A DNA stretch of 64,000 nt, taken from positions 565 to 64,564 of the forward strand of contig DBEA01000010.1 of NCBI GenBank assembly GCA_002293845.1, written 5' to 3'. The notes below the pieces were generated by a model. The model did not search any database. It had not been told where the DNA came from and was given only the letters and a program-made list of their open reading frames with translations. The position numbers were made by a program, and so were the translations under genes. Shown here in pieces: positions 4,583-32,142 of this stretch. This DNA comes from Patescibacteria group bacterium UBA918. GTDB lineage: Bacteria; Patescibacteriota; Minisyncoccia; Phycocordibacterales; UBA918. Position 1 is the stretch's first letter; every line of letters begins with the position of its first letter.

Positions 4583-5734
4583 ATGTCTTTTCAAGGCGAT
4601 TCCATCTTCTGGGTAGAACTCGACAAGATCGTACCGAACCCGTTCCAGCCACGCCGAGAATTCGACGAGGCAAAGCTAAAAGAACTGGCCGAATCGATAC
4701 GCATGTATGGCGTCCTACAGCCTCTCACCGTCACTCGCCGCGAGCGTTCGCGTGACGACGGTACTTTTTTTAGCGAGTACGAACTTATCGCCGGCGAACG
4801 GCGTTTGCGCGCCTCCAAGATAGCAGGATTGTCTCAGGTGCCGGTCATTATCCGCCAGGGAGAACAGACCGAGCAGGAAAAACTCGAGTTAGCCATCATC
4901 GAGAACCTGCAACGCGAGGATCTCAATGCCGTCGATCGCGCGATGGCGTTCCAGCAACTGAATCAGATGTTCAATTTGAATCACGTGCAGATCGCCGCCA
5001 AGATGGGCAGGAGCCGCGAATATGTGTCGAACACACTCAGACTTTTGGCTTTGCCCGAGACCATCTTGAACTCTTTACGTCGCGGCGAGATCAGCGAAGG
5101 ACATGCCCGCGCGCTCTTGATGCTCGCCGACCGACCGCAAGAACAGGACGTCTTATATCGCGAGATCTTGCTCAAGAAGATCTCGGTGCGCGAGACCGAA
5201 CGTATCTCTCGCAAGATCGCCACCGAGAGAGTACGTAAACATCAGTGGCGCGACACGGATCCGACTTTGATCGAGATCGAAAAGAAGTTCACCGAGAGTC
5301 TGGGTACGCGCGTCCAGATCAAAAAGACCGAGTTCGGCGGCACTGTCAGCATCGACTATTTCGACCCTTCCGAATTGCAAAAGTTGCTTTCACTGCTCGA
5401 TAAGCCGTCCGGCGTCGTCGTGACCCCCGGCTCTCTCGAAACCAGCGATACCGTGAGCGACACTTTGAAGGAGGAAGCGGCCGAAGCCAACGAGGTGATC
5501 GCTAAGCTCGAGGAGAATACGCCGCTCGAAGCGGCGTCGTCGGGGCCCTTGCCGCCGGCGCTCGATACCCTGGTCACGCCTCCGGAGGTAGATACATTAG
5601 TGACACCGCCACAAGTTAGGCCTAGAGAGGATATAGTCGTTGAAACTTCGAGGGAGTTACTGAACAAGATCAGTGAGTCTAGAAAGGAGAATGACGAAAG
5701 CGACATGTATTCCATAAAAAACTTCAACGTTTAA
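4583..5734 (+). CDS. parB: ParB/Spo0J chromosome partitioning protein with a long acidic/Pro-rich C-terminal extension
   Basis: ParB box region IVPNPFQPRREFDEAKLKELAESIRMYGVLQPLTVTRR and HTH GLSQ...AAKMGRSREYVSNTLRLL. C-terminal tandem DTLVTPPEV/DTLVTPPQV repeats. No parA adjacent. Confidence 0.85.
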   Translation: MSFQGDSIFWVELDKIVPNPFQPRREFDEAKLKELAESIRMYGVLQPLTVTRRERSRDDGTFFSEYELIAGERRLRASKIAGLSQVPVIIRQGEQTEQEKLELAIIENLQREDLNAVDRAMAFQQLNQMFNLNHVQIAAKMGRSREYVSNTLRLLALPETILNSLRRGEISEGHARALLMLADRPQEQDVLYREILLKKISVRETERISRKIATERVRKHQWRDTDPTLIEIEKKFTESLGTRVQIKKTEFGGTVSIDYFDPSELQKLLSLLDKPSGVVVTPGSLETSDTVSDTLKEEAAEANEVIAKLEENTPLEAASSGPLPPALDTLVTPPEVDTLVTPPQVRPREDIVVETSRELLNKISESRKENDESDMYSIKNFNV

Positions 5735-17442: not shown

Positions 17443-17718
17443 ATGCATCAAGGAAATTGGAAGTGTAGCGGTTGCGGCGCCACCATCACCGAATTGCCGT
17501 TCGAACCGAGAAGTACCGAAGGATTGAAGTGCCGCGACTGCCACTCCAAGTCTCGCGGCAACGCGCCGCGTCAGAACTCCGACCGTGGCGATCGGCAAAT
17601 GTTCGAAGGAAACTGGACGTGCGCTGGTTGCGGCGCGGCCATCACCAAGCTGCCGTTTATGCCGAGGGATACCACTAACCTCAAGTGTATCGACTGCTTC
17701 AAATCAAGCCGGACATAA
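17443..17718 (+). CDS. Small protein with two tandem CxxC-x17-CxxC zinc-ribbon repeats
   Basis: Internal duplication GNWKCSGCGATITELPFEPRSTEGLKCRDC / GNWTCAGCGAAITKLPFMPRDTTNLKCIDC. Confidence 0.5.
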   Translation: MHQGNWKCSGCGATITELPFEPRSTEGLKCRDCHSKSRGNAPRQNSDRGDRQMFEGNWTCAGCGAAITKLPFMPRDTTNLKCIDCFKSSRT

Positions 17719-17776
17719 GGAAGGGGCGTGCAGGCGCAAGTCATCTAATGGTAGAAAATTTTGCTATTATTAGTGA

Positions 17777-18481
17777 ATGGCGCATATCTCGTGGAGCAAG
17801 GGTCACACAAAGGATACTCACCCCTCGGTTCGGAAAATTTCCGAGACGATGAAGAAGAGGAAGGTGGATAATTTTGCCGCATGGCGTGAGCAAGCCAAGA
17901 AAAAAGGAAAGTTTAAGTCAGTTTACAAGGCTTTGCCGGAGGGCGGCGACTTAGCCGAGTTGATCGGTGTGATTTTGGGTGACGGTCATATTCAAAAGTT
18001 TCCTCGCACCGAAAGGTTGCTGATCTTTTCAAACGCCAACAACCCGGGCTTTGTAAAGCGTTATGCTGATATAGTGGAAAGGTTGTTTGAAAAGAAGCCT
18101 TACGTGTACAAGCAAACATCGAAGAACTGTATACGTATTAGTCTGTACGAAAAACATATCAGTCAGCGATTAAAGATCCCTACAGGTGCGAGAGGTAAGT
18201 TATATTTCTCGGTTCCGCGTTGGGTTATGCGCGATAAAACCTATGTAAAGCGTTACCTTCGAGGTTTGTATGAGGCAGAAGGAAGTCTATCGTTTCATTC
18301 CGCCACGTACACGCATAAATTCATCTTTTCCAATAGAAACGTGTCGCTATTGAAAAATGTCGAAAGATTGCTTAAAGTACTAGGGTTTTCACCCCACTCA
18401 AACAAAGAGAGTGTCCAACTGTCCAGAAAGGACGAGGTGAAGAAAGCCGCCCAGTTGCTACGGTTCAGAGTCTACAAATAA
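17777..18481 (+). CDS. LAGLIDADG homing endonuclease (two-motif, free-standing)
   Basis: LAELIGVILGDGHI and LRGLYEAEGSL. TATTAT 6 nt upstream of the ATG. The stop lies 6 nt before tRNA-Gln. Confidence 0.8.
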   Translation: MAHISWSKGHTKDTHPSVRKISETMKKRKVDNFAAWREQAKKKGKFKSVYKALPEGGDLAELIGVILGDGHIQKFPRTERLLIFSNANNPGFVKRYADIVERLFEKKPYVYKQTSKNCIRISLYEKHISQRLKIPTGARGKLYFSVPRWVMRDKTYVKRYLRGLYEAEGSLSFHSATYTHKFIFSNRNVSLLKNVERLLKVLGFSPHSNKESVQLSRKDEVKKAAQLLRFRVYK

Positions 18482-18487
18482 ATATAT

Positions 18488-18558
18488 TGCCCGGTGGTGT
18501 AAAGGTAGCACGCATGGTTCTGGCCCATGAAATCGAGGTTCGATCCCTTGCCGGGCAG
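18488..18558 (+). tRNA. tRNA-Gln (anticodon CTG), with U1-A72 as in bacterial tRNA-Gln
   Basis: TGCCCGG...CCGGGCA acceptor, anticodon stem CATGG/CCATG with loop TTCTGGC, T arm CGAGG-TTCGATC-CCTTG. Confidence 0.75.
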
Positions 18559-18613
18559 CAAATTTGAGCGACGCTTGAAGAGCATCGCTGTAACATCCGG
18601 TTGTTTCAAAAAA

Positions 18614-18637
18614 GTCCCAACTTCGTCCTAGACGGCC
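18614..18637. repeat. Copy A of a 24-nt direct repeat CCAACTTCGTCCyAGACGGCC flanking dgkA
   Basis: gtcccaacttcgtcctagacggcc; the second copy is at 19009..19033. Confidence 0.5.
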
Positions 18638-18658
18638 AATCGAAGGTATAATGTTCTC

Positions 18659-19000
18659 ATGAAGTACTGGATTAGAAGGTTGTCACATCCATTTCGTGGA
18701 TTGAAGTATGCGTTTGTCCATGATGACGCTACTCAAATAGAATTTGTCTTCGGCCTAATTGGTTTACCAATTGTCTATCGTCTGTTCGACATATCGGTTA
18801 GCGAAATACTGCTACTTACATTTTGCTGGTTTTTTGTGATGGTCACCGAACTACAAAATACGGCCATGGAAATAGCACTGACCAAGATTCATCCAGAACA
18901 TGACAAGGAAATTGGGCTTAGTAAAGACCTAGCTTCTGGGGCTGTGATATGGGCATCAGTATTTGGGTTGGTCTGTCTCGGTTTCGTGATCCTGAACTAG
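18659..19000 (+). CDS. dgkA: Diacylglycerol/undecaprenol kinase (prokaryotic DgkA family)
   Basis: TELQNTAMEIAL and SKDLASGAVIW match the E. coli DgkA EILNSAIE and SGRAKDMGSAAV blocks. TATAAT 6 nt upstream of the ATG. Confidence 0.8.
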   Translation: MKYWIRRLSHPFRGLKYAFVHDDATQIEFVFGLIGLPIVYRLFDISVSEILLLTFCWFFVMVTELQNTAMEIALTKIHPEHDKEIGLSKDLASGAVIWASVFGLVCLGFVILN

Positions 19001-19008
19001 TTAATCAT

Positions 19009-19033
19009 GGTTCCAACTTCGTCCCAGACGGCC
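19009..19033. repeat. Copy B of the dgkA-flanking direct repeat
   Basis: ggttccaacttcgtcccagacggcc, followed by hairpin CCAGAC-n10-GTCTGG. Confidence 0.5.
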
Positions 19034-19359
19034 CCCTAGTCTGGACTATGTTTAACCCATACTGTACAGTCTTTTTAGATACGTATTCCGGCCACGGGAA
19101 TCGTGGTGCTGTAAAGTGAGAGATCTGATGAACATTCTAAGGCGACGGGGAATCGAGAACCCATCTGACCATCTCGTTTCCCCTGTAGGGAAGCGACTGC
19201 GCGCTCCGGAAAGCGAGATATTCCGCGCCGCCGATGAGGTGGAGGCCGGGTTTGCCACGCTTCGCTATCTATGAATCCCGAAACGGGCGGTCTGGAAAGG
19301 CCGCCCTTTCACTTTATACAAAATCCTCCTTCATCCCGGACGGCCAAGGAGAAACACTG

Positions 19360-19686
19360 CTATTGCAAAGTTGCGAGGGTGAGTACTATCGCCGTCACTA
19401 TGCCGAAGAGGCCGATGGTCTTGAAAAAGTAAGACACGGCTTCCGCTCGTTTATTATCGACGAGTAAGGATACTGGTTGGTAAAAGAACAAGAACGCCAT
19501 CACGGCCGCGGAAAAAACGAATAACGACATAAAGCCGACGCCGTCGATCCAGGTGTCAGGGGTGTCGTGACGGATCGACTCGATAAAGCGCAAAAACACG
19601 GACACGGCGCCGATGTAAGCGACCGCCAAACCGGCGTTTAAAAACGGATGCCATTTCATACGCTCATTATAACTCCGTAGAGCCAT
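19360..19686 (-). CDS. Hypothetical membrane protein (3-4 TM)
   Basis: ORF with hydrophobic segments; divergent from the putative copper module. Confidence 0.45.
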   Translation of the reverse strand: MALRSYNERMKWHPFLNAGLAVAYIGAVSVFLRFIESIRHDTPDTWIDGVGFMSLFVFSAAVMAFLFFYQPVSLLVDNKRAEAVSYFFKTIGLFGIVTAIVLTLATLQ

Positions 19687-19740
19687 CGAAGGTTATTGGT
19701 CGGGTTGTAATGACAGCCCCAGGAACGCTATAATGGAATT

Positions 19741-20109
19741 ATGAGAGTTTTTGTGTCGGTCGCCCTCGTGGCCCTCCTCGCTTTCTTGACCGTAGCGACG
19801 CTCGGTGTCTATCTTTCTTCCGCCGCGCCCGATCACCATGACGCGGGCTGTCCCCTCATGGTCGGACAGGCGACGATCTGTGTCGGCTCGCCGCTAGCGC
19901 ACCTCGATCACTGGCAGGATGTCTTTGTCGCGGTGATCGTGAATACGTTCGCGCTCTTCGCGATGGTGATTTTGGTGGTTACCGTCTTGCCGTTCAGGCT
20001 TCCGGACAAGAGACGCGCGCGCGTCGATTCGCGTCCGCCCGAACCTGACCGTCCGCCTCTCTTTCAAGAACTTTTTTCACAAGGAATACTTCATCCTAAA
20101 GCGCCGTAG
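19741..20109 (+). CDS. Membrane protein with His/Cys cluster (putative metal-binding)
   Basis: Two TM segments flank PDHHDAGCPLMVGQATICVGSPLAHLDHWQD. TATAAT 6 nt upstream of the ATG. Confidence 0.45.
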   Translation: MRVFVSVALVALLAFLTVATLGVYLSSAAPDHHDAGCPLMVGQATICVGSPLAHLDHWQDVFVAVIVNTFALFAMVILVVTVLPFRLPDKRRARVDSRPPEPDRPPLFQELFSQGILHPKAP

Positions 20110-20150
20110 TGTCGCCGCCGATCTATTATCGATTAACTAATTCTAAATTC

Positions 20151-20741
20151 ATGGAAAGAAACACTATCGTCGTCGGCTTAGTCGCTCTGCTTCTCGGTTT
20201 GGGCACCGGTTACCTCGTTTGGAGCACTAGCGTGCCCGCCGAGGATGGCTTCGGACATCGGATGTCCGATGGTTCAATGATGGATCAAGACATCGATCGG
20301 CACTTTATCGTTCAGATGATCCCGCATCATGAAGGCGCGATCGCGATGGCCAAGATCGCGCTCGAGCGTTCGAAGCGGCCGGAGATCTTGTCCTTAGCAA
20401 ACGGCATCATCGAAGCGCAGGAAAAAGAGAACGGCGACATGCGCGCTTGGTACCGCTCTTGGTTCGGTGCCACTCCTCCGGAGGGAGGCATGGGGATGAT
20501 GCATATGGGCGGGATGGAAGGAGACACGAACGTGCTACAAAACGTGTCTGAAGCGCATTTCGACCGCGAATTCATCGAACAAATGATCCCGCATCATGAG
20601 ATGGCCATAATGATGGCCGAGATGCTTCGGGCTTCCACCGTCCGCGACGAGATGAAGGAATTGGCGAACAACATCATCACGTCGCAGTCGCGAGAGATCG
20701 AGATGATGCGCGGTTGGCTCACTAGTTGGTACGGCCAATAA
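20151..20741 (+). CDS. DUF305 (CopM-like) periplasmic metal-binding protein with a Met-rich segment
   Basis: Two copies of FIxQMIPHHExAIxMA and MGMMHMGGMEG. The start is moved to ATG 20151 (MERNTIVVGLV signal peptide). Confidence 0.7.
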   Translation: MERNTIVVGLVALLLGLGTGYLVWSTSVPAEDGFGHRMSDGSMMDQDIDRHFIVQMIPHHEGAIAMAKIALERSKRPEILSLANGIIEAQEKENGDMRAWYRSWFGATPPEGGMGMMHMGGMEGDTNVLQNVSEAHFDREFIEQMIPHHEMAIMMAEMLRASTVRDEMKELANNIITSQSREIEMMRGWLTSWYGQ

Positions 20742-20753
20742 TCTCCTTGGTAT

Positions 20754-22268
20754 ATGAAAAATTCATATCTGCTCGTGGGAGCAGGGCTGGCATTCGTGAT
20801 CGTCATAACGGGCGTCATGCTTTACCTAGAGCCCAAGAAAGATTCTTCAGTCTCAGAGAAAATCTACGTGGCCCTAGAGGGAGATGGCGCGGTCGGTGTG
20901 ATCGATGGGAATAAAAGCAAGCTCGTGAAGACAATTTCGCTCACCGACGAACGAACCGGCACCATGTACATGCCGCACAACGTGCAGGTATCACTCGACG
21001 GGAGTGTCGTATGGGTGACCGCGAATGCGATGGCCGAAATGGAGCACCAAAGCTTCAGATTCCTCAAGACGGCGCAGGCGGACGGAGGTCACGAAGATTC
21101 CGAGACGGAAAGCGATCAGCTTATCGCGATAGATCCGAGCACGGATATGATCGTCCGGAGAATCCCGATAGCGATCGGACAGCATCTCGCTCATGTGGTG
21201 CAGTCTGCCACCGACTCGGCGGTTTTTGTAGCGGCGCAGGAGACCGACATGATCTACGTGGTCGATGCGGATTCTATGACGCTAGAACGAAGCATTAAGT
21301 TGCCGGAAGGTAGCGGCCCGCACGGAATGCGCCTTTCGCCAGATGATCAGACTCTCTACGTCGCCCTCATGAGCGGAGAGGCGCTTGGTATGGTCGACAT
21401 CAATTCGGGGACAGTCGATAGTCAACCGCTTAATGGCGGTGCCGTGCAAACGGCGGTTACGCCAGACGGTTCGCGAGTCGCCGTTTCGGTGTATGACTCC
21501 TTGAGTATTGGAGTATACGATACGGGGAAGAGGTCACTCTCGTATGTAAAGCTCCCCGAGGGATCGCAAGGTCCAGTGCAACTGTACCCGACTAAGGATT
21601 CGCGCTTCGTGTACGTGGCCGACCAGGGGACGCTGAATGGGCGCCGTGCGAACGATAAGCTTTTCAAGATCGACCTTGAGACGCTGGCGGTCGCCGAAAC
21701 GATCGAGGTCGGAAGAGCTCCTCATGGTGTCGCCCTCAATAGAGGCGGTGATAGGGTTTATGTGACCAACCTCGAAGACGGTTCGGTTTCCGTGGTCGAC
21801 ACCGGGGCGGCGCAGGAGATCGCGAGAGTCAAGGTAGGTAAAGAACCGAACGGGGTGAGCGTGTGGAACGGGAGAGAGGATCGATCTTCCGTCGGAGCGC
21901 TCGAAGGCGTAAAGATCACCGTATACAAATCGCCGACCTGCGGATGTTGCGGGAACTACGTCGCCGAACTTAGACGACAGGGCGCGGAAATCACCGTGGA
22001 GGAGATCTCGGAGGCTGCTCTTACGGAGAAGAAAGCCGCGCTCGGCGTGCGCCCCGAACTGGAAAGTTGTCACACTTCGGTTATGGACGGCTATGTGATC
22101 GAGGGGCATGTCCCTGTGGAAGCGATAGCAAAACTACGCGCTGAACGGCCCCCGCTCGCAGGTATCGCATTGCCCGGTATGCCGGCAGGAAGTCCGGGCA
22201 TGTCCGGAATCAAATCTGAACCCTTTGCCGTGCAAACGCTCGAAGGAGATCTATTCGGGAACTTCTGA
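20754..22268 (+). CDS. Fusion protein: YVTN-type beta-propeller repeats plus C-terminal DUF411 (CopG-like CxCC copper-resistance domain)
   Basis: Repeated YV.D/YVTN blocks. The C-terminus VYKSPTCGCCGNYVAELRRQG...ESCHTSVMDGYVIEGHVPVEAIAKL...GIALPGMPAGSPGM matches the DUF411 pattern YKSP.CGCC...SCHT...GY.IEGHVP...P.MP.GSPGM. Confidence 0.7.
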   Translation: MKNSYLLVGAGLAFVIVITGVMLYLEPKKDSSVSEKIYVALEGDGAVGVIDGNKSKLVKTISLTDERTGTMYMPHNVQVSLDGSVVWVTANAMAEMEHQSFRFLKTAQADGGHEDSETESDQLIAIDPSTDMIVRRIPIAIGQHLAHVVQSATDSAVFVAAQETDMIYVVDADSMTLERSIKLPEGSGPHGMRLSPDDQTLYVALMSGEALGMVDINSGTVDSQPLNGGAVQTAVTPDGSRVAVSVYDSLSIGVYDTGKRSLSYVKLPEGSQGPVQLYPTKDSRFVYVADQGTLNGRRANDKLFKIDLETLAVAETIEVGRAPHGVALNRGGDRVYVTNLEDGSVSVVDTGAAQEIARVKVGKEPNGVSVWNGREDRSSVGALEGVKITVYKSPTCGCCGNYVAELRRQGAEITVEEISEAALTEKKAALGVRPELESCHTSVMDGYVIEGHVPVEAIAKLRAERPPLAGIALPGMPAGSPGMSGIKSEPFAVQTLEGDLFGNF

Positions 22269-22349: not shown

Positions 22350-22880
22350 GTGAAGACGATAATTATAATTTTCGCGCTAGTACTTTTGGCTGCCGGCTCT
22401 TTCTTTTTGAGTAAAAACGACATAGAAGATATTCCGAGCGAGAACGCCGATCAAAAAGCCGACCAAAAGACGGAAGAATCACCGACCTCTTCTACGGCAA
22501 CGTCGGTGACTCTCGATCTAAGTGGCCAGAATCTGACCAAGGTTCCTGATTCCGTATTCAAACGAACCGATGTCGAGGAGTTGGATCTTTCACATAATGC
22601 TCTCAGTGGAGCTTTGCCGGCCGAAGTGCGCCAGCTGCGAAACTTGCGCGTTCTTGATCTTAGCGACAACGATTTGACCGGCGTGCCGGCCGAGGTCGGA
22701 CAACTCGCTCGTTTGGAGGTGCTAGATCTGTCGAATAACCCGATTACGGGTCTACCGTACGAGATCGGTAACTTGAAAAACCTGCGCGTGCTCGACCTGC
22801 GCGGTACGGATTACGCCGCCGCGGATCTGGAGGTGATCAAAAAAGGTCTGTCGGAAGAAGTAGAGATCAGGACCGACTAA
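22350..22880 (+). CDS. Secreted leucine-rich-repeat (LRR) protein
   Basis: LxxLxLSxNxLxG repeats (LDLSHNALSGALP, LDLSDNDLTGVP, LDLSNNPITGLP). The track start 22311 is a TTG inside the terminator T-run. I prefer GTG 22350, with TATGAT 6 nt upstream. Confidence 0.65.
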   Translation: MKTIIIIFALVLLAAGSFFLSKNDIEDIPSENADQKADQKTEESPTSSTATSVTLDLSGQNLTKVPDSVFKRTDVEELDLSHNALSGALPAEVRQLRNLRVLDLSDNDLTGVPAEVGQLARLEVLDLSNNPITGLPYEIGNLKNLRVLDLRGTDYAAADLEVIKKGLSEEVEIRTD

Positions 22881-22952
22881 ACGGTCGGGACCTCTTCGAT
22901 CGCGCTGTTTTTATCAGTTCGCGATCGAAGAACTATGCGGTAGAATGTCCAC

Positions 22953-28425: not shown

Positions 28426-29055
28426 ATGAAAAAACACTTTTGGAAGGTCGTCGCTTTCGTGGCTCTACTACTCATTGCTGGGTCCTTTATTTATTCACAA
28501 AAGGCGAGCGAGCAGGCCAACGAAGGCGTGATTCTAGAGGCTAGGATCAAGGGAAACCCTGAGGCCAAGACGGTTTTGGTGGAGTATAGCGACTTCCAAT
28601 GTCCGGCTTGTGCCCAGTTCTATCCTGTGGTCAAGGAAATCATCGGGGAACACGGCGACGATCTTAAAGTTGAGTATCGTCACTTTCCGCTCATAAACAT
28701 CCATCCCCAGGCGGTACCGGCGGCCAAAGCCGCCGAAGCTGCGGGCGTCCAGGGAAAATTCTGGGAAATGCACGACAAGTTGTTTGACAACCAGGCGACT
28801 TGGAGTCGTGCTTCTAACCCATCCGCCTACTTCAACCAGTACGCCGAGGAGATCGGCCTCGACGTCGACCAGTTCAAGCGTCATAAGGATTCTTCCATGA
28901 TAGCCGACGCCATTAATGATAGCTTCAATGAGGCTCGCGATCTGGGATTTACGGGTACCCCCACCTTCATGTTGAACGGGGAGGTGATGGAATTCGACAC
29001 TTTCGAGGAGTTTAAGAGTCAGATCGAGGCGGCGATCGCGGCCGACCCTTCCTGA
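28426..29055 (+). CDS. DsbA-family thiol:disulfide oxidoreductase (CPAC active site)
   Basis: Signal/TM anchor plus thioredoxin fold with FQCPAC. Confidence 0.8.
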   Translation: MKKHFWKVVAFVALLLIAGSFIYSQKASEQANEGVILEARIKGNPEAKTVLVEYSDFQCPACAQFYPVVKEIIGEHGDDLKVEYRHFPLINIHPQAVPAAKAAEAAGVQGKFWEMHDKLFDNQATWSRASNPSAYFNQYAEEIGLDVDQFKRHKDSSMIADAINDSFNEARDLGFTGTPTFMLNGEVMEFDTFEEFKSQIEAAIAADPS

Positions 29056-29130: not shown

Positions 29131-30414
29131 ATGCCAAAGAAACAACGGAACATCATCGCCTATGTCTCTAAGGTGTCTCCCGACATCATTGCCGACATCC
29201 GGACGTGGGAAAAAGAGACCGGTGAGAGGTATCGGATCATGTTGATCGAGAACTCCGCACGGAAGATGACCAAAAGACAGTCTGGTGCTACCTTGGACGG
29301 GGTCAATATCGTGCTCTCGGTCGATTTTACCAGCGACTCTGCTCTTCAAGAGGCGCTGGCTCCATACCAAGATCAGCTGTGCGCCATCACTAGCCGTGTG
29401 GAATCGTATTTGGCCGATTTCATCAAGATCATACCGTTCGTTCCGTATCTACATACGCCCACGCCTGAATCGCTCCAATGGGCTAGCGACAAGCGCTTGA
29501 TGCGTCGACATTTTCGAGTGGCAGATTCCTCTATTACTCCTAAATACGCTTTGGTCAAGGATGCTAGCGATACAGAACTCGAACGTGTGGTCGGCCAGAT
29601 CGGTTTTCCGTTGATACTCAAGCCTACCAACTTAGCCCAGAGTCTGTTGGTGAACGTTTGTCATCATCAGGATGAATTGCGTAAGGTGGCGAAAGAGGTA
29701 TTCAGAGAGATAGAAAAGATCTACGCTGAAAATGGCCGGACCGAGCGCCCGCGCGTGCTAGCCGAGCAATACATGGAAGGTTTGCAGTATTCGATCGATG
29801 CCTATGTGTCCGCTCGCGGCAAAGTGACCTGTTGTCCTTTAGTTCGCCAGAAGACCGGACACGACATCGGCCGCGACGATTTTTTCGGATATCTGCAGTC
29901 GACTCCGACCGCGCTATCGTCGGCCACGGTGAAAAAAGCCGAGGAGGTGGTTAAGCGCGGAGTCCATGCCCTAGGTCTTCGTAACACTACTGTCCACGTC
30001 GAATTGATGCGCATCGACAATACTTGGAAGATCATTGAGATCGGCGCGCGCATCGGAGGATTCCGACCGCAGCTCCACCGTCTTTCTTGTGGCATCAATC
30101 ACGGCATGAACGATGTGCTGGTCCGTATGGGACGCCAACCGGTCGTGCCGCGCCGCTGCCGCCGCTTCGCGGCGGCGATGAAATACTATGCCAAGGAAGA
30201 GGGTGAGATCGTCAGTATTTTGGGACTTAAGAAGATCGAGAAACTAACTTCCTTCCACAAGATAGAGATGCGCAAGAAGCGCGGCGACCGGAGCGTTTTC
30301 GCTAAAAACGGCGGCGGCGCTATTTTCGTGCTGTATTTAGTGAACGATTCTCGTTCGGACTTGTTGGCAGATATTAGACGAGTTGAGGAGGCGGTACGGG
30401 TAAGAGTGGCATGA
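29131..30414 (+). CDS. ATP-grasp domain ligase (large, with N-terminal extra domain)
   Basis: GFPLILKP, EQYMEG, IEIGARIGG ATP-grasp blocks. Confidence 0.65.
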   Translation: MPKKQRNIIAYVSKVSPDIIADIRTWEKETGERYRIMLIENSARKMTKRQSGATLDGVNIVLSVDFTSDSALQEALAPYQDQLCAITSRVESYLADFIKIIPFVPYLHTPTPESLQWASDKRLMRRHFRVADSSITPKYALVKDASDTELERVVGQIGFPLILKPTNLAQSLLVNVCHHQDELRKVAKEVFREIEKIYAENGRTERPRVLAEQYMEGLQYSIDAYVSARGKVTCCPLVRQKTGHDIGRDDFFGYLQSTPTALSSATVKKAEEVVKRGVHALGLRNTTVHVELMRIDNTWKIIEIGARIGGFRPQLHRLSCGINHGMNDVLVRMGRQPVVPRRCRRFAAAMKYYAKEEGEIVSILGLKKIEKLTSFHKIEMRKKRGDRSVFAKNGGGAIFVLYLVNDSRSDLLADIRRVEEAVRVRVA

Positions 30415-30421
30415 TGTCAGT

Positions 30422-31294
30422 ATGAAGATCGCGATAATGACCTCACGTGTGATAGAGGAGATCAAGGGACTCACTGAAGAGTTGCGGACCCGCGGACACG
30501 AGGTAACGCTTTGGCCGCTTGATCAAATCAAACCAGAAATGTTCGTCGACGGATCGCTAGCTACTGAGCTGTCTCGGTTCGATCTTGTTTATTATCGTTC
30601 AGGATTTTCCGATGCCGGAGCCTTCGAACTGGGTCGGTTACTAGAAAAGACGCCGGGTCGTCTGATCAATAGAGCCGTCTTTAGACCGCTCACATCCAAC
30701 AAGATCCATCAAGCCATCGCTTCCATCAAATGCGGCATCGCCATTCCGCCGACTTTTATAGGTCGAAATGTTTCCTTTGATACTTTAAATAAAGAGTTCG
30801 GTCTACCTTTTATATTAAAGGCCGCGCACGGTATCCAGGGCGATAAAGTATTTTTGATCCACGATAAAGACACTTATAATAAGCGACTGGATGAGGTATC
30901 GAGTGAAGTGATGTTTCAGAAATTCATCCCTAACGGCGGCGACTACAGGGTTTTTGTATTGGGAGGCGAGGTTCATGACATCTTCAAGCGCGTGGCCGCC
31001 GAAGGTAATTTCAAAAACAACATGGCCCTTGGCGCACGAGGAGTACGAGTGACCGATGTGACGATGCGTAAGAGGTTGGCGGCGATCGGTACTACCATAG
31101 CAAAAAGCATGGAAATCGAGATTGGAGGCATTGATGTCATAGAATCGTCTGAGGATGGACAGTTGTATTTTCTAGAAGTGAATGTCAATCCAGGATGGAG
31201 AGGACTCGATTCTACTTTAGGCGGAAACACCGCTGCTACCGTGGCGGATTATTTTGAACGTCTGCTCAAATCATCCAGCACCACATTGCTATAA
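30422..31294 (+). CDS. RimK-like ATP-grasp ligase
   Basis: GLPFILKAAHGIQGDKVFLI, YRVFVLGGEV, YFLEVNVNPGW. Confidence 0.7.
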   Translation: MKIAIMTSRVIEEIKGLTEELRTRGHEVTLWPLDQIKPEMFVDGSLATELSRFDLVYYRSGFSDAGAFELGRLLEKTPGRLINRAVFRPLTSNKIHQAIASIKCGIAIPPTFIGRNVSFDTLNKEFGLPFILKAAHGIQGDKVFLIHDKDTYNKRLDEVSSEVMFQKFIPNGGDYRVFVLGGEVHDIFKRVAAEGNFKNNMALGARGVRVTDVTMRKRLAAIGTTIAKSMEIEIGGIDVIESSEDGQLYFLEVNVNPGWRGLDSTLGGNTAATVADYFERLLKSSSTTLL

Positions 31295-32142
31295 ACTCTC
31301 TCCACGTCGAAACCTGCCGCCGGACTAAAAATGTCCATTTGTGGCGCTTTATTGACCTCAAAGACAAGAGGTCCTCTTTCTGTTCTTACTAGATCAACGC
31401 CAGCTACCCGCAGTTCGGCCTTCTCGGCAGCCCCGATGCATATCGATTCCTCTTCGGCGGATATGGGTATCTTTTCCGGTTTGCCTCCTTGCGATACGTT
31501 GTTGTAAAACCCGTCGGAGCTAGATCGTTTGATAGCCGCGATGATCTTACCATCAAACACGAACACTCGAATATCATGGTCGTTCGGTATATATTCTTGT
31601 ATGAGCGTAAGCTCCGAGTCTTGTTTTATGTGTGTCTCTAAGCTAGCTTTGTCTTCCACTTTCCACACGTTTTTTCCCTTTGAACCGGTTTTTTTGACTA
31701 CGACCGGAAATTGCAATCGCTGTTCAATGTAGGTTTTATTTTTTTCGTATGAATGAGGTGTCACGATAAGAGTGTTAGGTACCTTGATGCCATTTAGAGG
31801 TAAAGATACCATCATTGTGATCTTGTCTGCCGTCTTATCAGAGACCAGGTTCGCTCCATCGATGAAGATCGGCACCTTCTCTTGTAGTATCCGACCGATC
31901 AGATAGGTTCGATAAGTATCTTTGTTGGTTCTCTTTATTAGGTAGGCCGTGTCATTGGTCGGCAAGGGCGCGTTATCATGTATCACGCATACAACAGAGT
32001 CCGATTCGTACCCGATCGAAATGATACAATCTCTAGTCAAAACGTTTTCTGTAGATATTTCTTGTTCAGCCGCTAAAGTGCGAAATAGTTCAAAGAAATG
32101 AATCGGATCATCGCCATTCATCACAATTATATGCTTGATCAT
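31249..32142 (-). CDS. RimK-like ATP-grasp ligase (AT-rich; convergent, overlapping the previous gene by 46 nt)
   Basis: QFPVVVKKTGSKGKNVWKV, IRVFVFDGKII, VFEVNKAPQ. Confidence 0.65.
   Translation of the reverse strand: MIKHIIVMNGDDPIHFFELFRTLAAEQEISTENVLTRDCIISIGYESDSVVCVIHDNAPLPTNDTAYLIKRTNKDTYRTYLIGRILQEKVPIFIDGANLVSDKTADKITMMVSLPLNGIKVPNTLIVTPHSYEKNKTYIEQRLQFPVVVKKTGSKGKNVWKVEDKASLETHIKQDSELTLIQEYIPNDHDIRVFVFDGKIIAAIKRSSSDGFYNNVSQGGKPEKIPISAEEESICIGAAEKAELRVAGVDLVRTERGPLVFEVNKAPQMDIFSPAAGFDVERVYSNVVLDDLSRRSK

Follow-up and report, generated by a model that had tools for sequence, protein, structure and literature searches.

What do three genes with copper-protein motifs do on a long stretch of bacterial DNA that carries no copper pump? 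The question is raised by positions 19741 to 22268 of contig DBEA01000010.1 from the Patescibacteria bacterium UBA918, of which we analyzed a 64,000-nt stretch (the window). The region encodes a small membrane protein, a DUF305 protein and a β-propeller protein that ends in a DUF411 domain. The three genes are co-oriented, as a first-pass annotation of the window had proposed, with all open reading frames (ORFs) on the + strand. The trio probably represents the extracytoplasmic half of a Paceibacteria copper-efflux operon, which has lost its pump and its regulator in this lineage, is still maintained, and would serve for Cu(I) capture and/or oxidation at the outer face of the membrane.

The most unusual product of the locus is the 504-residue fusion protein (20754..22268, +). 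Profiles and an AlphaFold 2 (AF2) model built on 60 homologs (mean predicted local distance difference test score [pLDDT], 88.5) delineate a membrane anchor at residues 4 to 24, a seven-bladed propeller at residues 36 to 371 and a CopG/DUF411 domain at residues 383 to 504. The model comprises a helix (residues 4 to 24), 28 strands forming seven four-stranded blades (36 to 371), a disordered segment (95 to 116) and an alpha/beta C-terminal domain (387 to 503). The propeller matched both the PF21783 YNCE domain (49.7 bits versus a cut-off of 27.1) and the TIGR02276 YVTN repeat (80 versus 27.85); with these profiles above their cut-offs and seven four-stranded blades, it is a propeller of the YVTN/YncE type. 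The DUF411 domain (21900..22265, +), defined by PF04214 and by alignment with Pseudomonas CopG (PDB 6WIS), scored 81.4 bits versus a cut-off of 27 over residues 436 to 483. Residues 386 to 491 of the fusion protein align with residues 3 to 106 of CopG (E = 3.1e-21), and the CxCC (CGCC, residues 396 to 399), SCHT, GHVP and PGMPxGSPGM (here PGMPAGSPGM) motifs are all conserved; in 29 fusion proteins, they are at least 90% conserved. The fusion of a YVTN propeller with DUF411 was thus correctly recognized at first pass, and every motif quoted for it is present.

CopG binds a tetracopper cluster via its CxCC motif and Met residues, and it has been proposed to oxidize Cu(I) (PMC7558416). The C-terminal 122 residues of the fusion protein align with Pseudomonas aeruginosa CopG over 104 residues, and the domain shares with CopG its described genetic link to copA-type pumps (PMC7558416). 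In Gram-negative bacteria, CopG is small, soluble and periplasmic, whereas here DUF411 forms the C-terminal part of a membrane-anchored protein in a single-membrane organism, and the cluster chemistry is putative. In ending a 504-residue anchored propeller protein, the domain departs from the small stand-alone secreted protein that defines DUF411. The view that the fusion is unusual was borne out, as the 120 closest DUF411 homologs listed of 2,829 matches are all stand-alone proteins of 120 to 195 residues. The propeller-DUF411 architecture is found in about 31 clusters at 90% identity, with one representative at 50%, versus at least 2,829 DUF411 clusters. Many of the stand-alone proteins among those 120 come from Patescibacteria, and the two such patescibacterial loci that we examined are copper-pump clusters, with the gene orders MFP, RND, DUF411, ATPase and DsbA, DUF411, HMA-ATPase. 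Because stand-alone DUF411 proteins (130 to 190 residues) are common in Patescibacteria, we gave less weight to the idea that the fusion serves as a membrane anchor for CopG.

The fusion ORF is not the result of chance or of an assembly artifact, since at least seven contigs encode the identical protein and about 31 clusters share the architecture; the gene order is common to the four contigs shown, each of which comes from a different sample. All the close homologs of the fusion protein stem from metagenome bins of Patescibacteria. Public databases already carry it under automatic names such as “DUF411 domain-containing protein” and “YVTN family beta-propeller protein,” with one identical copy on a 107-kb contig, and literature searches for the fusion, for YVTN proteins and copper, and for Patescibacteria, copper and propellers returned no relevant study. 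Fusions of the propeller to DUF411 are rare and belong to a narrow clade.

The gene upstream of the fusion gene codes for a CopM-type DUF305 protein of 196 residues (20151..20741, +). The first-pass annotation rightly reported a DUF305/CopM-like protein, its two FIxQMIPHHE repeats and its Met-rich segment GMGMMHMGGMEG; the GTG at position 20109 (ORF 20109-20741, 210 residues) is probably not the real start codon. The homolog in a syntenic contig labeled Paceibacteria_UBA918 (locus L002; homologous loci are designated L001, L002 and so on) aligns from the ATG at position 20151, which favors the shorter protein. The protein matched PF03713 with 142.4 bits (cut-off, 27) and the NCBIfam CopM model NF049983 with 110.1 bits (cut-off, 90) in two stretches. 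It comprises an N-terminal hydrophobic anchor (MERNTIVVGLVALLLGLGTGYLVW), the two MIPHHE repeats and a Met-rich linker. Residues 39 to 196 align with full-length CopM of Synechocystis sp. PCC 6803 (PDB 5FEJ; E = 1.8e-38); the two HH-containing repeats and the Met-rich linker are common to both proteins. CopM is an extracytoplasmic protein that binds Cu(I) with a dissociation constant of about 3e-16, and alone, without a pump, it confers copper resistance in Synechocystis (PMC4335983). The genetic settings differ, as Synechocystis copM sits in the copMRS operon under a two-component system, whereas in the relatives of the window locus the DUF305 gene follows a CsoR-controlled ATPase, and no regulator was found in the 64-kb window.

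The first gene of the trio (19741..20109, +) codes for a small two-helix membrane protein of 122 residues (sTM), defined from its ORF and family alignments, that matched no Pfam or NCBIfam family in profile scans. Two hydrophobic helices flank the loop HHDAGCPLMVGQATICVGSPLAHLDHWQ, and the basic tail ends in LFQELFSQGILHPKAP; the His/Cys cluster PDHHDAGCP...CVGSPLAHLDHWQD is present as originally quoted. In the family alignments, the outward loop has an invariant Cys37, a Cys47 that is at least 90% conserved, and His and Trp residues, and the C-terminal tail carries the motif LFQELFSQGILHPK (F-S-x-G-I-L-x-P-K), also at least 90% conserved. A low-confidence AF2 model (pLDDT, 66.5) predicts two long helices (residues 2 to 28 and 51 to 86) and a short C-terminal one (107 to 117). 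A profile built from six operon-linked copies retrieved 167 clusters; the 120 of these that were listed contain unannotated proteins of 84 to 195 residues without a Pfam family, the few named ones being from Patescibacteria. All three proteins of the trio have N-terminal hydrophobic anchors. Patescibacteria are bounded by a single membrane and have no periplasm in which soluble proteins could be retained; a protein with an N-terminal anchor therefore sits on the outer side of the membrane.

The genomic context of homologs links the trio to copper efflux. We called genes in 91 loci that harbor a propeller homolog, labeled them by using profiles built from seeds, and counted neighbors in 85 non-redundant loci; the counts are lower bounds, because the crude gene calling missed some csoR genes. 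An ATPase, CsoR, DUF305, a multicopper oxidase or the small membrane protein was taken as a copper-linked neighbor. A P1B-ATPase gene lies within six genes of the propeller gene in 45 of the 85 loci, at least one copper-linked neighbor is present in 56, and sTM directly precedes DUF305 or the propeller in 30. In the subset of 14 non-redundant loci with a DUF411 fusion, all have a copper-linked neighbor, and a copper P1B-ATPase is encoded within six genes in 11. The only three without a nearby pump are the window locus, its close relative L011, and L001, in which the pump gene lies 6.5 kb downstream. The ATPases of the relatives pass the copper P1B model TIGR01511. Profile searches thus recovered both DUF305 and DUF411, and homologous fusions sit in metal contexts, in keeping with the copper-related role suggested at first pass.

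The gene order in L002 is CsoR, a 638-residue P-type ATPase with a His-rich N terminus and a CPH motif, a 122-residue sTM, DUF305, the fusion protein and a leucine-rich-repeat (LRR) protein; the fusion protein is 86% identical between L002 and the window. A similar arrangement is found at 51% identity in L006 and L007, with CsoR, ATPase, a 135-residue small protein, DUF305 and the fusion protein. In L004 and L005, an ATPase with an HMBD domain is followed by proteins of 72 and 132 residues, the fusion protein and a multicopper oxidase, with CsoR, a second ATPase, DsbA and DsbB encoded nearby, and in L001 the order is a 140-residue small protein, the fusion protein, a DsbA-like protein, CsoR, a cupredoxin and the ATPase. 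DsbA-like neighbors occur in 11 of the 85 propeller loci. As a separate observation, a membrane protein of 72 or 73 residues that ends in IATIHHMMLEK.G.II (L004:9267-9485, L008:6761-6982 and 8 others) follows the copper ATPase in 10 of the 85 loci; like the His-rich C-terminal tails of the propeller described below, the 72-residue protein matched no Pfam family in Pfam scans.

Together, csoR, a CsoR operator and a P1B-ATPase gene are present in L002, L006, L012, L013, L016 and other loci. The palindrome upstream of csoR, read directly from the sequence and with short arms, lies between the -35 and -10 hexamers (ATACCCCGTGGGGGTAT in L002 and TATACCCCATAGGGGTATA in L006), and 14 loci each have exactly one occurrence of the pattern ATACCCCNNNGGGGTAT. 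This pattern matches the CsoR site of Staphylococcus aureus, ATACCctggGTGGGTAT (PMC10233261). The operon of the relatives resembles the S. aureus copXL/copBL genes, which code for a CsoR-controlled P1B-3 ATPase and the surface lipoprotein CopL, in that both belong to single-membrane bacteria and have a CsoR box and a His-rich CopB-type pump (PMC10233261). CopL, an extracellular protein tethered to the membrane, has been suggested to bind copper and to prevent its re-uptake (PMC10233261). The two systems differ in that S. aureus has one extracellular protein there versus three here, in that the pump is missing from the window locus, and in that CopL appears to belong to another protein family.

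What became of the pump and the regulator in the window is apparent from a synteny break identified by blastn. Positions 17711..19771 (no strand assigned) correspond to positions 5702 to 9019 of L002, which hold a tRNA-Gln gene, the operator, csoR and the ATPase gene; in the window, the csoR-ATPase block has been replaced. The replacing segment encompasses a free-standing LAGLIDADG ORF of 234 codons (17777-18481) just upstream of the tRNA-Gln gene and absent from the syntenic position in L002, the tRNA-Gln(CTG) gene itself (18488-18559), a diacylglycerol kinase gene (18659-19000) and a membrane-protein ORF on the minus strand (19360-19686). tblastn searches with the L002 CsoR and ATPase proteins gave no match across the 64-kb window, profile searches of all window ORFs for a pump or csoR were empty, and no CsoR box was found in the window even at three mismatches. 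The locus therefore lacks all three hallmarks of a CsoR-regulated copper-efflux operon in the 64-kb window, namely csoR, its operator and the P1B-ATPase. The first-pass annotation had reported no ATPase or CusA adjacent to the trio and had left the export partner unidentified. The former holds true, and extends to any P-type ATPase or CusA in the whole 64 kb; the latter does not, as the partner in relatives is a CsoR-controlled ATPase of the CopA/CopB type. The pump-less layout is not peculiar to this contig, since it is also present in L011 and on independent contigs.

The remaining genes appear to have the means for expression. A promoter-like site, TTGTAA-18-TATAAT, with 10 of 12 matches to the consensus and devoid of a CsoR box, lies at positions 19705..19734 (+). 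It ends 6 nt before the ATG at position 19741, which suggests that the transcript of the trio is leaderless or nearly so. Upstream of it, a consensus scan detected a terminator-like hairpin with a 9-bp stem and seven G-C pairs (19285..19306, +) downstream of the diacylglycerol kinase gene, which would insulate the trio from upstream transcription of the + strand. The CopM and fusion genes are under purifying selection. Relative to L002, the ratios of nonsynonymous to synonymous divergence (dN/dS) are 0.14 for DUF305 and 0.125 for the fusion gene (0.11 for its propeller part and 0.095 for DUF411), and those of flanking housekeeping genes are 0.13 to 0.14.

The sTM gene has evolved differently. 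Its product is 58% identical to that of L002, against 86 to 88% for the neighbors, and its dS is three times theirs. Relative to L011:888-1247, within the pump-less lineage, 8% of its residues differ, with a dN of 0.047, a dS of 0.045 and a dN/dS of about 1, whereas the CopM and fusion genes differ by about 1% or less with a dN of about 0.003, so that dN and dS of the sTM gene are each about 10 times those of its neighbors. This divergence would reflect either a different recombination history or relaxed constraint after loss of the pump.

A tRNA-Gln(CTG) gene is located directly upstream of the cop cluster not only in the window but also in L002 (6150-6221) and L006 (6396-6467), in distant genomes with different flanking genes, and the cluster of L001 is flanked by a serine recombinase gene and a tRNA-Ser gene. 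The cop cluster may be mobile as an island or use tRNA genes as insertion sites.

We then considered the propeller domain itself (20859..21866, +) by using a family alignment and the DSSP assignment of the model. Scanning one genome per species yielded 425 propeller relatives. In a separate search of a representative library, which giant multi-repeat YVTN proteins dominated, only single-stretch matches were used. The propeller occurs alone (about 375 residues), with a C-terminal DUF1573 domain (about 520 residues) or with DUF411. A ring of seven residues, His75, His147, His190, Gln232, Gln276, His324 and Asn366, is identical in 83 of 85 distinct members of the family, including gammaproteobacterial proteins at about 40% identity, and Glu42, Asn76, Asn91, Asp121, His144, Arg193, Asp290, Gln291 and Asn339 are invariant or nearly so in the same 85 members. 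The ring residues occupy positions 2 to 4 of the innermost strand of each blade in the model (strands 72-79, 145-150, 189-194, 230-235, 274-279, 323-328 and 365-371), and the other conserved residues are found where the second strands end or in the subsequent loops. Given the typical topology of propellers, the ring and these other residues would all face one central pocket. In 1L0Q, a generic YVTN propeller, the residues aligned at the P-x-G positions are Met, Gln, Leu, Lys, Ser, Ala and Tyr, and the hub ring is thus specific to the copper-associated family.

The other distinctive feature of the domain is an insert between strands B and C of blade 1 (residues 93 to 120; 21030..21113, +), predicted to be disordered with pLDDT values below 50 at residues 95 to 116. 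Compared with the rest of the domain, family-wide, it is enriched in His (7.0% versus 1.8%), Met (5.9% versus 1.9%) and Glu (12% versus 4.8%), and it has at least two His or Met residues in 82 of the 85 members. This His/Met/acidic-rich insert may act as a capture loop or as a lid that covers the hub.

Curated models of related propellers did not account for the domain. It scored 56 bits against the L-NosZ profile NF052460 (cut-off, 700), with only blades 3 to 5 aligned, 18.4 bits against the AztD profile NF038015 (cut-off, 400), and 89.1 bits against TIGR03866, which describes propellers associated with PQQ-dependent catabolism (cut-off, 287.3). The periplasmic zinc metallochaperone AztD (6CMK/6N01; Foldseek rank 8, E = 2e-15) provides a parallel as an extracytoplasmic propeller that handles metal for a transporter, but the metal is different and the AztD transporter is an ABC importer. 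NosZ and thiocyanate dehydrogenase are seven-bladed propellers with a copper center in the hub; the similarity of fold is generic for propellers, and unlike them the window propeller has only 4 to 5 His plus Gln and Asn in its hub and no cupredoxin CuA domain. The propeller belongs to an uncurated family that is a conserved element of copper operons and that carries DUF411 interchangeably with several other metal-motif domains, rather than being a generic scaffold onto which DUF411 has been grafted.

Other natural fusions connect the same propeller to copper proteins. In two species of Moraniibacteriota (L074:5619-9050 and L078:5625-9050), a single ORF of 1141 to 1143 codons encodes a complete CopA, with its HMA domain and CPC motif, one extra hydrophobic helix and the propeller; the representative P0369 is built in the same way. 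As the C terminus of P1B pumps is cytoplasmic, the extra helix would place the fused propeller outside, beside the pump. In P0382 and in P0510 of L096, a signal sequence is followed by a strongly Met-rich segment (MMNMSDM...MSMSGMNMPHTSMSGMDMSHMSMSGMMM) and then by the propeller; the L096 gene (8001-9509; GCA_034675525.1, a 1.28-Mb contig) sits in an island with two multicopper oxidase genes, a DUF1573 gene and transposase genes. Translation of the deposited L096 gene with table 11 did not reproduce the query protein, and the gene may use another genetic code or start.

The C-terminal tails vary as well. The DUF1573 immunoglobulin (Ig)-like tail, found in L009 (7995-9554) and 17 other loci, has conserved TSCMCT, GMPGH and DPAAHGPQG motifs, which suggest metal binding, a point on which the Pfam description of DUF1573 is silent. 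A domain of about 110 residues with the signature HxHP...HTHD...H.E is fused to the C terminus of the propeller in L038 (7974-9599) and L057 (5988-7481) and is encoded by a separate gene directly after the propeller gene in L008 (9136-9621). In L025, the tail is of a His-rich type, GAGPGGHHREG.

These data can be assembled into a model. The full operon would consist of a CsoR operator, csoR, a P1B copper ATPase, sTM, CopM and a propeller with or without a metal-motif domain. In the lineage of the window, the operator, csoR and the pump gene would have been replaced by unrelated DNA downstream of tRNA-Gln, and the remaining genes would have acquired or kept a promoter of their own. Cu(I) that reaches the outside of the membrane, supplied by a pump encoded elsewhere or by the environment, would be captured at three places, namely, the Cys/Met/His loop of sTM, the Met/His sites that give CopM its high affinity and the propeller loop rich in His and Met. 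It would then be passed to the propeller hub and to the putative CxCC tetracopper site of the tethered CopG domain, where it would be held or oxidized to less toxic Cu(II), preventing its re-entry. The propeller-CopG fusion would thereby unite in one polypeptide two components that other Patescibacteria encode separately in the same kind of operon. We infer the mode of action of the propeller from conservation and context, and copper binding by its hub is putative.

A more specific proposal, which we put forward tentatively and consider rather doubtful at this stage, is that the propeller represents a novel kind of copper protein acting outside the cytoplasm. A copper site made up of its H-H-H-Q-Q-H-N hub and His/Met-rich lid would dock where the P1B pump releases the metal and would receive Cu(I) directly, and the swappable C-terminal domains (CopG, CMC-motif Ig, HxH/HTHD) would process the metal.

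Several observations weigh against the interpretation of the trio as the outer half of a copper-efflux operon. No pump is visible in the window, and the pump-coupled step cannot be placed here. The promoter of the trio is predicted from a consensus match. sTM, being far more diverged than its neighbors, may be losing its role in the window lineage. With 4 to 5 His residues, Gln and Asn, the hub might just as well bind a ligand other than copper or be a catalytic site. In Methylococcaceae, homologs that have the identical ring sit in nitrate, nitrite and nitric oxide (NO) clusters rather than in copper clusters, which leaves room for a catalytic copper hub or a function that is not copper-specific. 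Among these homologs from Methylococcaceae and Gammaproteobacteria, the gene directly follows narGHJI in L072 and L075, lies between genes for an HPP-CBS protein and a double NarK transporter in L053, L056 and L071, and precedes nnrS in L077.

The last two points bring up the possibility that the propeller is a cuproenzyme, whose catalytic hub copper would be loaded by the adjacent P1B-ATPase, with CopG or the CMC-motif Ig domain acting in electron transfer or copper insertion, as in the pairing of propeller and cupredoxin in NosZ, and with a nitrogen oxide or another small molecule as the substrate. The invariance of a polar ring at only about 40% identity does resemble an active site, the methanotroph genes are placed after narGHJI, before narK-narK or before nnrS, the propeller partially matches the lactonase-type NosZ model, and a role in copper delivery to multicopper oxidases has been proposed for CopG (PMC7558416). 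We nevertheless regard this explanation as unlikely, given the L-NosZ score far below the cut-off, the small number of conserved His residues and the missing cupredoxin domain. Furthermore, the operon in Patescibacteria is under a CsoR box, i.e., induced by excess copper, which fits detoxification, and the partners of the propeller, Met-rich repeats and CopM, are typical of copper sequestration.

That the trio is a functionless remnant decaying since the pump and regulator were deleted appears very improbable. The loss of csoR, the operator and the ATPase gene and the dN/dS of about 1 for sTM within the pump-less lineage are what such a remnant would show, but none of the three ORFs is disrupted, every diagnostic motif is kept, dN/dS values are 0.095 to 0.14 for CopM, the propeller and DUF411, and the identical fusion protein recurs across samples. 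A strong promoter-like site lies directly upstream, and CopM works without a pump in Synechocystis (PMC4335983). We give still less credence to the fusion protein being a surface scaffold or adhesin akin to archaeal S-layer YVTN proteins, with a thioredoxin-like, Cys-rich C-terminal domain in thiol-disulfide chemistry. Its propeller does find its best structural and sequence match in 1L0Q, the YVTN domain of a Methanosarcina S-layer protein, an LRR gene follows the fusion gene, and DsbA-like neighbors are frequent. The hub ring, however, is missing from 1L0Q, the LRR neighbor is limited to one lineage, the C-terminal domain aligns to CopG with all the cluster-ligand motifs and not to DsbA or thioredoxin active sites, and the propeller is found fused to CopA and to Met-rich segments. 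An extracytoplasmic copper-handling set that has outlived its pump at this locus thus remains our preferred explanation.

The gene downstream of the trio codes for a membrane-anchored LRR protein (22362..22880, +; LRR_8, E = 2e-22). A consensus scan found no terminator-like site in the gap between the fusion and LRR genes and one at positions 22882-22902, after the LRR gene, which is probably co-transcribed with the trio. With its occurrence limited to the window, L002/L003, L011 and L092 to L095, it is lineage-specific, and we did not count it as a copper component. Two other features of the window are worth recording. Positions 17443-17718 encode a 91-residue protein with two tandem treble-clef zinc-finger repeats (PF23477), conserved in L002, and an ATP-grasp and RimK/glutathione-synthetase-like cluster (29131-32142), about 7 kb downstream, adjoins a DsbA-like gene (28426-29055).

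Except in Gram-negative bacteria, little is understood of how Cu(I) is handled after its release by P1B pumps, because cells with a single membrane lack a periplasm for soluble chaperones. The Patescibacteria appear to possess a recurrent, uncharacterized membrane-tethered set made up of a two-helix Cys-loop protein, CopM and a propeller with a conserved hub, and the natural CopA::propeller and propeller::CopG fusions offer testable ideas on the order of copper hand-over. The pump-less arrangement constitutes a natural experiment on whether extracellular copper binding or oxidation is useful by itself, and the methanotroph propellers in nitrate/NO clusters hint at a broader role. The wider finding is an uncurated family of copper-associated propellers and its unannotated partner membrane protein. 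If the propeller does dock at the pump, it would constitute, for single-membrane bacteria, the first acceptor dedicated to a copper ATPase on its outward side, and together with the unannotated two-helix Cys-loop protein it would represent a lineage-wide solution outside current schemes of copper homeostasis.

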